A stretch of DNA of 64,000 bases, taken from Octopus vulgaris. Lineage: Eukaryota. How positions within the stretch are numbered: the first letter of the stretch is position 1; each line of letters starts with the position of its first letter. Of this stretch, positions 36,346 through 63,398 are shown piece after piece. The position numbers were made by a program, and so were the translations under genes. Under the pieces are notes generated by a model, which saw nothing but the letters and a program-made list of their open reading frames with translations, did no database searches and had not been told where the DNA came from. Where the stretch lies: the NCBI GenBank assembly GCA_951406725.2, contig OX597834.1, positions 11,904,001 to 11,968,000 on the forward strand, read 5' to 3'.

Positions 36346-37209
36346 TCTTTTTTAAAGGATGAAAGGCAAAGTCGAAATATATATATATATATATACATAC
36401 GAAGTCTATTATTCTTTTGTAACTAGTATCCCCTCCATTAGCTTTTCCTAGAACCAAGCCAGCCAATGCTTAGTTTTATTTACGTTTCTCTTTTATTTCT
36501 AATACACGATCATTAAAGCAGCTATAGACAACACTACTCGACTCTGTAAAATACCAATTGTTCTGTTGAGATGTTGCAAAACACACACACACACACACAC
36601 AATGAAAATTTGCAGGGAGGAATGATGGTAATTCCAAAATTCTAAATGTGGGAAAAGCTGTGAAGCAGGATGCAGAACCAATATTGAACAAACTGACTTC
36701 AATTGTTTCCTTACAATTCACTTCACTGACAAATCATTCCAATATGGATTGATGTAAAAAGTCTTACACCCACACACGGCTTTCCTTTTCAATCAAACAT
36801 CTTAATAGATTTAAGTAGTATGACCTTGTCTTAAGCACGAGTCTTAACTCCTGTGATTTCTATAACAGCAGTGATTTACCCTCACCTATCTAAATTGAAA
36901 CGGTTGAGAATATAGTTATGTATTTTTATATTTGTTTTCTTGAAGCGTAGCTCTTATTTGTGCGTGCATCTCATCCTGCTGTCAGTTATATGTTTAATGA
37001 TATCTTTCTTCTTATTATTATTTGTTTACATTTGGCAGTAGATCTCTTAGAGTTTATTGCCTGTTTCTTTTATATGCCTTATTTTGTATAATGCATTTCG
37101 AGTAAGACGGAGTACCACAGCCAGTTATAGCATCACAGTCATACATATACACAGTCACACATACAACACATACATATGTGTGTGAGTGTTTATACATGCA
37201 CATATATAG

Positions 37210-37290
37210 ACATGCATGCATACATACTCATTGACACACACATAGGTATGCACAAATGTATCTACATGCATATATGTTGGAGTGGATATA

Positions 37291-37332
<42 letters not shown>

Positions 37333-37400
37333 TGCATAGTCACTGACACACACACATATATGTGCACAAATCTATCTCCATACATATATGTTGGAGTGGG

Positions 37401-37405
<5 letters not shown>
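37210..37405. repeat. ~115-bp tandem duplication around a (TA)n tract
   Basis: tgcacaaatgtatctacatgcatatatgttggagtgg vs tgcacaaatctatctccatacatatatgttggagtgg. Confidence 0.8.
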
Positions 37406-37434
<29 letters not shown>

Positions 37435-53264: not shown

Positions 53265-53910
53265 GGGCGGGGGGTGGGGGCAAGCGAATAGATCAATCCC
53301 AGTACGCAACTGGTACTTAATTTATCGACCCCGAAAGGATGAAATGCAAAGTCGACCTCGGCTGAGTGCAGATAGTATTATTATTACATGTTCTAAATAC
53401 GCGAGGGTTTAAGAGCTAAGCACGTAAGATAGTATATTTAGTTCTAAATTTTCTACTCAAAGTTCAAAACGTCAGAAACAGATGTGAATTGACCTATTTC
53501 TTTACTATCAACAAGAGGCTAAACTCAGAGAGGACAAACAAGGACAGACAAACGGATTAAGTCGGTTATATCGACCCTAGTGCGTAACTGGTCCTGAATT
53601 TATCGACCCCAAAAGGATGAATGGCACAGATGACCACGGCGGAATTTGAACACAGAACGTAACGGCAGACGAACTACTTATTTCTATTTCTTTCCTACCC
53701 ACAAGGGGCTAAACACAGAGGGGAAAAACAGGGGCAGATAAACGGATCAAGTCGATTACATCGACCCCAGTGCGTAACTGATACATAATTTATCGACCCC
53801 GAAAGGATGAAAGGCAAAGTCGACCTCGGCGAAATTTGAACTCAGAACGCGACGGCAGACGAAACACCGCTAAGCAATTCGCCCGGCGTGCTAACGTTTC
53901 AGCCAGCTCT
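53265..53910 (-). mobile_element. Cluster of three SINE family B units (53265-53362, 53493-53675, 53679-53910)
   Basis: Three central domains in the same orientation; the last two form a tandem dimer. Confidence 0.9.
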
Positions 53911-62269: not shown

Positions 62270-62318
<49 letters not shown>

Positions 62319-62461
62319 CATACATACACATATATATACATACATATACATACATATACATATATATACATACATATACATATATATACATACATACACA
62401 TATATACACATACATACATATATATATATATACGTACATACATATATATACATACATATAC

Positions 62462-62492
<31 letters not shown>

Positions 62493-62799
62493 CATATATA
62501 CATACATATACATATATACATACATATCTATATATACATATATATATACATACATATCTATATATACATATATATATACATACATATCTATATATACATA
62601 TATATATATACATACATATCTATATATACATATATATATACATACATATCTATATATATACATATATATACATATCTATATATACATATATATATATATA
62701 CATACATATATATACATATCTATATATACATATATATATATACATATCTATACATATATACATACATATATACATACATATACATATATATATATAAAT

Positions 62800-62842
<43 letters not shown>
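62270..62842. repeat. Compound (TA/CA)n microsatellite with ~30-bp higher-order periodicity
   Basis: tacatatctatatatacatatatatataca is repeated at 62521-62680. Confidence 0.95.
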
Positions 62843-63352
62843 CCCCAACATATGTACAGTACACCCCAAATGCATTAAACATTACGCACACAATACATAC
62901 TGTACCCTAGCATAACCACTCCCAAGACTTTATCCTTTACAGAGAGAAAACGAACACAGCATTATATACCTACGCCCCCGAAAACAATTATGCATGGCAC
63001 CACTACACATATCACACCCCACATCTCGACAGGAGCACCACATTCATAATACAAACCTTCACCATTTCAAGATGATACTTTCTGGCTTCCCAGCATACCC
63101 ACTCTAGTGTAATAACCCTAAGCTAATCCCCTAGCCTCTTTTTCGTTGCACCACTTTTTCATAGGAGCCTCTGACGGGTTGTGCTCTTCCCCTTCCGACA
63201 ATAAAGACCAGTTGCCATATTCCCTTCCACATCGGCTAACTGTGATGAGCGTAAAGTCATATAACCGGCTTGTTACCTAACGCTCCATTAATACCTTTAT
63301 GCGAAACCGGTTGGTAAAATTAGCCGTAATGGATATTTAATACTATACTTTT

Positions 63353-63356
<4 letters not shown>
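62843..63356 (+). mobile_element. (TA)n-embedded ~515-bp C-rich element ending in a hammerhead motif
   Basis: Non-repetitive, compositionally distinct insert between two TA tracts; hammerhead near the 3' end. Confidence 0.7.
63233..63326 (+). ncRNA. Type I hammerhead ribozyme motif (Penelope-type, CCGG loop III)
   Basis: cggctaa..act|GTGATGA|gcgtaaag...ctttatgc|GAAA|ccgg|TT|ggt aaaa ttagccg: 8-bp helix II and bulged helix I; single core change C3G. Confidence 0.7.

Positions 63357-63398
<42 letters not shown>

Follow-up and report, generated by a model that had tools for sequence, protein, structure and literature searches.

The window analysed here, a 64-kb stretch of the Octopus vulgaris genome, carries between TA-type microsatellites an insert of 514 bp at 62843-63356 (Table 1). 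Cytosine makes up 151 of its 514 nucleotides (29%) as against 17% for the window as a whole, and an earlier sequence-only reading, which had described a C-rich insert of 515 bp in (TA)n, was thus right about composition and setting and off by one in length. The window holds no second or tandem copy of the insert; the two-copy tandem repeats that occur elsewhere in it (53494-53863, 39617-40000 and 37202-37426) have periods of 190, 114-139 and 114 bp, respectively. No ORF of at least 120 aa lies in the insert, and those of the window are mostly microsatellite read-through. Toward its 3' end the insert bears a hammerhead ribozyme motif, and all of the letters on which the sequence-only reading had built it are present: GTGATGA at 63242-63248, gcgtaaag (63249-63256) and ctttatgc (63295-63302) enclosing 38 nt, GAAACCGGTT at 63303-63312, and the helix I blocks cggctaa (63233-63239) and ttagccg (63320-63326). 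A descriptor combining the core, a 7-bp helix II and a short helix III finds its sole match in the window at this site, and none in 60 dinucleotide-shuffled windows. Rfam, run over the window, reports no family at all at its gathering score and no hammerhead at E values up to 10. The hammerhead motif in the insert is real.

Table 1. Features of the insert and its surroundings in the 64-kb window (the 5' edge of the element is good to ~30 bp; its 3' edge is the common end of the family)
Feature	Position	Strand	Remarks
TA/TACA microsatellite	62278..62842	.	5' side of insertion site
Hydra-clade Penelope-like element 3' end (3' UTR), 5'-truncated (very probable)	62843..63356	+	sister-copy comparison
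C/A-rich non-coding 3' UTR	62843..63226	+	no ORF included
Helix I 5' strand: distal block, 5-bp block, proximal pairs	63227..63241	+	
Catalytic core GTGATGA (family CTGATGA)	63242..63248	+	C3G at 63242
54-nt helix II arm: 8-bp basal stem plus inner irregular hairpin	63249..63302	+	decayed here
GAA and helix III (3 bp, 4-nt loop, near-palindromic)	63303..63316	+	predicted cleavage after A63316 (GUA)
Helix I 3' strand	63317..63332	+	G>A at 63318 disrupts second proximal pair
Element end, 40 nt past predicted cut	63333..63356	+	optional ~70-nt tail absent
(AT)20	63356..63396	.	3' side of insertion site

The insert belongs to a family dispersed through the animal's own 2.8-Gb genome. When 40 of 866 candidates in the Octopus vulgaris genome were scored, homologous sequence was located at 44 places, 43 of them outside the window and 70-86% identical, and a 24-base pattern laid across the ribozyme has 263 exact matches in the genome and none in a control. 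At 6-8% divergence, 263 exact matches translate into an estimated 1,000-2,000 copies with a helix II arm of 54 nt. Far from being single-copy, the refuting case named by the sequence-only reading, the sequence exists in hundreds of copies, and many of these adjoin a GIY-YIG ORF. The copies have a common 3' end and differ in their 5' ends, a pattern that was quantified in all 63 exact matches of one 23-mer. Upstream of the core, these copies begin at distances of 2-1484 bp with a median of 44 (the reference itself stops at 1484), and 33 of the 63 stop within 50 bp of the core; an inverted piece is found on the 5' side of 31, a tail of ~70 nt follows 16, and the 3' end is unreadable in 9. Truncated and inverted 5' ends and a 3' tail have been described as signatures of Penelope-like elements. 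TA-type runs follow most 3' ends of the listed copies, and the window copy likewise sits in (TA)n. Many insertions are short back-to-back fold-backs of two hammerhead-bearing ends (L250, L073/L086, L185, L191, L263).

Longer copies run upstream into an ORF for a reverse transcriptase (RT) with a C-terminal GIY-YIG endonuclease (EN), as judged by translation and by tblastn against an intact Hydra ORF of the same genome. In three longer copies that were measured, the EN stop codon stands 671-751 bp from the 3' end, so the insert, being the last 514 bp of a family 3' UTR of ~700 bp, consists of 3' UTR only. ORF remnants lie upstream and on the same strand in 18 of 61 copies of subfamily A, in 2 of 33 copies of B (one of these two a mis-sorted A copy), in 2 of 13 of C2 and in 0 of 17 of C1; the link is clear for A, thin for B and C2 and absent within 1.6 kb for C1, and parts of the lineage may therefore be non-autonomous. 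The ORF pieces carry RWK (L046), DKT (L046 and L042) and RWT (L054), the RWK and DKT copies being joined to the family by DNA identity of 72-82% and L046 having no hammerhead of its own, while CxCX5C, CxxC and CxH recur in many copies (e.g. L003, L037, L075, L060). In the available part of a survey of Penelope-like elements (PLEs), RWK, DKT, CxCX5C, CxxC and CxH are given as marks of the Hydra clade (PMC8557442). By these translated marks, the family is very probably a Hydra-clade PLE. A 338-aa RT piece matches 103 outside proteins of at least 593 aa at 31-47% identity; of four such homologues examined, every one shows RWK and DKT, and three span the RT-EN length in full or almost in full. In one RT stretch, 50 of 68 residues of L056 match Hydra-1_Obim (by eye), and identity to a young Hydra family of the same genome is 46%. 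Pfam assigns 0 families to L046 and L199, and none to the RT piece. Pieced together, the element would comprise ~2.1 kb of ORF and 0.7 kb of UTR, to be set beside a Hydra criterion of less than ~3 kb; neither an intact ORF nor an unbroken full-length copy of the insert's family was found. Two side observations concern individual copies. L046 (~2100-2400), an old Hydra copy, is broken up twice, after the linker by a piece resembling a Tc1/mariner transposase and between DKT and RT by another repeat. The upstream flank of L069 holds an EN remnant with different sequence around CxCX5C and CxH, which suggests a further Hydra family beside that of the insert.

Taken at the level of the locus, the insert is very probably the 3' end, 514 bp long and 5'-truncated, of an old Penelope-like retrotransposon of the Hydra clade, lodged in a TA microsatellite and with a hammerhead motif that is likely inactive here. 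The Penelope link proposed from the letters is borne out by the adjoining RT and GIY-YIG ORF, and the term solo pLTR fits loosely, in that a 3' terminal, hammerhead-bearing part of a PLE would have been inserted alone. The other identity put forward, a monomer of a non-autonomous retrozyme of ~500 bp spread via circular RNA, has some appeal, as size and type I hammerhead fit loosely, most copies are short, and retrozymes are reported to derive from pLTRs in the accessible text of 10.64898/2026.07.22.740005. It is nevertheless very improbable: only 1 of the 63 copies is tandem, and no peak of 5' ends occurs near that of the window copy. Scattered 5' ends and rare tandem copies in that set together largely exclude a fixed-unit retrozyme, and the sister copies continue unbroken upstream into the EN stop codon, with the subfamily A remnants beyond.

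Read as a truncated PLE end, the insert can be placed in a model of insertion that draws on the available parts of PMC11167929 and PMC4209133 for the cut in AT-rich DNA, reverse transcription inside an uncut RNA and transcript processing. From this known PLE biology, the element's GIY-YIG endonuclease would have cut (TA)n, and reverse transcription of the RNA would have set in 40 nt past the ribozyme site, to break off after ~500 nt. Because copies end beyond the cut site, the template would have been uncut there, and uncut RNA is described as the insertion substrate (PMC11167929, part available). Two start sites for reverse transcription would explain the optional tail. The ribozyme of source elements would process tandem transcripts by cutting at GUA. 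Two modes of cutting are predicted, one by a monomer whose helix III has 3 bp, the other by a dimer held together by the near-palindromic helix III.

Comparison with sister copies separates what the ribozyme of the family looks like from what has happened to the window copy. Across 76 copies the core is CTGATGA, with C3 in 68 and G3 in only 3, helix III is ACC-GATT-GGT, and the next base, H17, is A in 74, giving a GUA site that corresponds to the position after 63316 in the window. A wider collection of 175 anchored sites, gathered from divergent matches, includes 143 with a readable core, of which 111 have exact CTGAnGA. The GTGATGA core of the sequence-only reading is correct as to its letters and a minority state in the family. 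Its GAAA-CCGG-UU parse of the cleavage block arises from a change at 63310, where 69 of the 76 copies have A and the family reads ACC-GATT-GGT-A. Its A-rich bulge in helix I with a 7-bp distal stem results likewise from two private changes, at 63318 (G in 72 of 76) and 63321 (C in 69 of 76). The 38-nt segment taken for an open loop II folds in the family majority as a stem extending helix II, which has decayed in the window copy.

Two further structures involving this segment were weighed. One is a non-circularly permuted, type CSG hammerhead with its cleavage block inside the supposed loop. Type CSG hammerheads exist (PMC10085705, in the part available), and loop segments are indeed complementary to the 5' strand of helix III and to helix I; the fold is rejected, however, because its U16.1 requirement fails: of 76 A copies, 43 have A in that column and 23 have T. 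Since the pairing is found in 0 of 31 B copies, and every subfamily keeps the normal GUA block, the permuted fold has next to no chance of being correct. The second structure has the aaccgg of loop II pairing with helix III as a pseudoknot or switch that regulates cleavage, and it had been raised by the sequence-only reading as a pairing to ccggtt. The 6-bp complementarity is present in 90% of cells among 86 copies and is kept in both A and B, the window copy itself shows a C-G double change at one pair, and double-change cells in BLAST-picked copies number 20 against 7.4 in shuffles (20 against 6 in the pooled set). All of these double changes but one, however, are CpG decay, and a hand tally of the first 100 of the 263 unselected matches counted 13 compensatory against 22 non-compensatory changes. 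In A, B and C2 the segment finds its partner within the arm itself, and AACCG, the majority sequence in C1 and C2, mismatches CGATT. Regulation by such a pairing is thus quite improbable, and neither it nor the GAAACCGGUH parse is a feature of the family as seen in sister copies; in the predicted folds, a place in the inner hairpin, as one of its strands, accounts better for the segment.

The helix II arm is where the subfamilies differ. It measures 54 nt in A and B, 41-45 nt in C1 and 52-59 nt in C2, with the core and the 3' end in common. The majority arms of A (61 copies, z -6.5), C1 (14 copies, z -4.5) and C2 (13 copies, z -4.3) each form one long irregular hairpin, that of B (31 copies) folds weakly (z -1.5), and single natural copies vary from -0.5 to -6.9. 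For the C1 and C2 majorities, the unconstrained minimum free energy (MFE) fold is the three-way hammerhead junction with its core free; for the A majority, all three helices are present in the MFE fold, which is more stable by 2 kcal/mol than the free-core fold. Calculation gives -12.4 kcal/mol for a self-dimer of the 10-nt segment of helix III as against -0.9 for the hairpin, and such dimers have been proposed for PLE hammerheads. Of 94 copies whose arm measures 54 nt, 86 entered the covariation analysis; 2 others were out of register, and 6 were junction pieces or short. Among the 86, 87% of cells are paired in the structure versus 33-42% when slid, although it was derived from the same sequences. 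Helix II pair 27-74 appears as UA in 43, UG in 16 and CG in 21 copies and pair 30-71 as AU in 41 and GC in 31; double changes beyond CpG sites are confined to helix II, and there is little variation in helix III or proximal helix I. The count of doubly changed pairs is 14 against 14.4 in shuffles, and the covariation amounts to about two events among related copies. RNAalifold run on the raw, decayed copies recovers almost no structure, and mutual information among columns mostly follows the A/B split and does not indicate pairs. The C2 arm (L165, L169, L185) looks as if the 3' strand of the C1 arm (L156, L195) had been duplicated locally and the hairpin had then re-paired in a new register.

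The most likely account of the long helix II is an extension that folds on itself, is tolerated and stays paired so that the core can form. It is tempting to speculate that it is instead a selected working domain of the lineage's ribozyme, which went through three or more rebuildings (44, 58 and 54 nt, with local duplication behind one step) and was a closed hairpin throughout, yet we regard this as unlikely. If it were so, the core, the GAUU-capped helix III and the 3' end would have hardly changed while the arm was rebuilt, and the arm would make a docking contact with helix I or offer a binding site to the protein of the element, aiding cleavage of a monomer with a helix III of 3 bp, or alternatively delay cleavage until reverse transcription is under way. 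Such motifs evade standard descriptors and, under selection of this kind, may account for some of the 'half-core' PLE cases.

The window copy is more diverged than its sisters. Over 63020-63356, its non-CpG divergence from the majority of 20 sister copies is 15.2%, and the sisters diverge by 5.7-13.3%, these having been chosen as best matches. The damage includes C3G, loss of the second helix I pair and impairment of the inner hairpin; G3 now stands opposite G8, and the C3-G8 pair is no longer intact. The substitution is not an assembly slip, because contigs of sequencing runs X1 and X2 carry G3 without difference, although these runs may be of the same source. The contigs, which are no more than putatively RNA, show presence only, and no RNA run is listed as carrying the sequence. 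The available text of PMC11167929 reports that C3G eliminates cleavage of the PAc ribozyme, an Anolis PLE hammerhead, and by that analogy the hammerhead of the window copy is likely inactive. Neutral decay after insertion would account for C3G, the broken helix I pair and the collapsed inner hairpin. It may be asked whether the host has instead exapted the copy as a structured RNA, its changes being selected, as its divergence is high at non-CpG and low at CpG positions and two of the changes extend or preserve pairs. This is scarcely credible, for the 52 changes from the sister majority are private, hardly any of them being common to sisters, and mixed in kind, and they break the core, the proximal helix I pair and the inner hairpin (z -1.4 for the fold of the copy and 0.1 for its inner hairpin).

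The same genome also houses a young Hydra-clade family (L196-L215, e.g. L199:1501-3627, G000:C5:4984099), with 68 scored matches, most of them without stops. Its 708-aa ORF is intact in 19 of 20 loci examined and ~98% identical; its copies stand head to tail with a period of ~2590 bp, in (TA)n, with pLTRs and inverted 5' pieces. At the 3' ends and in the pLTRs, its hammerhead has C for U4, with the core CCGAWGA in 37 of 37 motifs, a helix II arm of 30 nt and a helix III loop of 1 nt; to go by these sequences, CCGAWGA is a core variant of a predicted ribozyme in an apparently active element. As a source of the insert, the young family is ruled out, the two having no DNA similarity.

The window copy itself is of little consequence. 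The family is a small addition to what is known, namely an unlisted Hydra family with a hammerhead missed by Rfam and by short-loop descriptors, and its series of subfamilies records the growth of a ribozyme arm under a fixed core. The role of the hammerhead in PLE transposition is still described as open in the available parts of PMC8557442 and PMC11167929, and the natural arm variants offer ready material for cleavage tests of PLE hammerheads.

Among known systems, animal non-LTR retrozymes resemble the insert in being non-coding, in carrying a type I hammerhead and in their relation to PLE ends; they are tandem units of 150-450 bp, whereas copies of the insert's family are scattered, truncated to different extents and connected to an ORF (PMC7229834; 10.64898/2026.07.22.740005; parts available). 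The minimal and variant type I hammerheads described for metazoan PLEs (Cervera and de la Pena 2014, PMC4209133, as far as that text was available) are alike in a short, near-palindromic helix III capable of dimer formation, in G10.1-C11.1 and in a large helix II; the insert's family differs in a helix II that extends far beyond 6-8 bp, a long helix I and the lack of an extra base between positions 9 and 10.1. The nearest counterparts are the C-terminal EN+ PLEs of the Hydra clade (Craig et al. 2021, PMC8557442, available part), Hydra-1_Obim being the closest: clade and family have RT followed by GIY-YIG and all five Hydra-clade marks named above, and the clade is also alike in its (TA)n target, 5' truncation, inverted 5' pieces, tail and hammerhead near the 3' end. 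Points of difference are the 3' UTR of ~700 bp and the tail, at ~70 nt as against 30-40 nt. The family stands apart from the Hydra families listed, as its core/helix II motif is absent from the available portion of the PMC8557442 supplement, and the hammerhead of Hydra-1_Obim, which by eye is closely related, is short and different. The literature covered, with most subscription papers and preprint supplements lying outside it, yielded no account of long-arm Hydra hammerheads, and the PLE-X1_sMoe entry, in what is available of it, already lists a 34-nt loop 2, a precedent for a long arm. Hydra-1_oBim has an arm of ~23 nt, and the Hydra motifs listed span ~10-26 nt (PMC8557442, available part); set against these, the arm of 41-59 nt is the only unusual trait of the insert's family.
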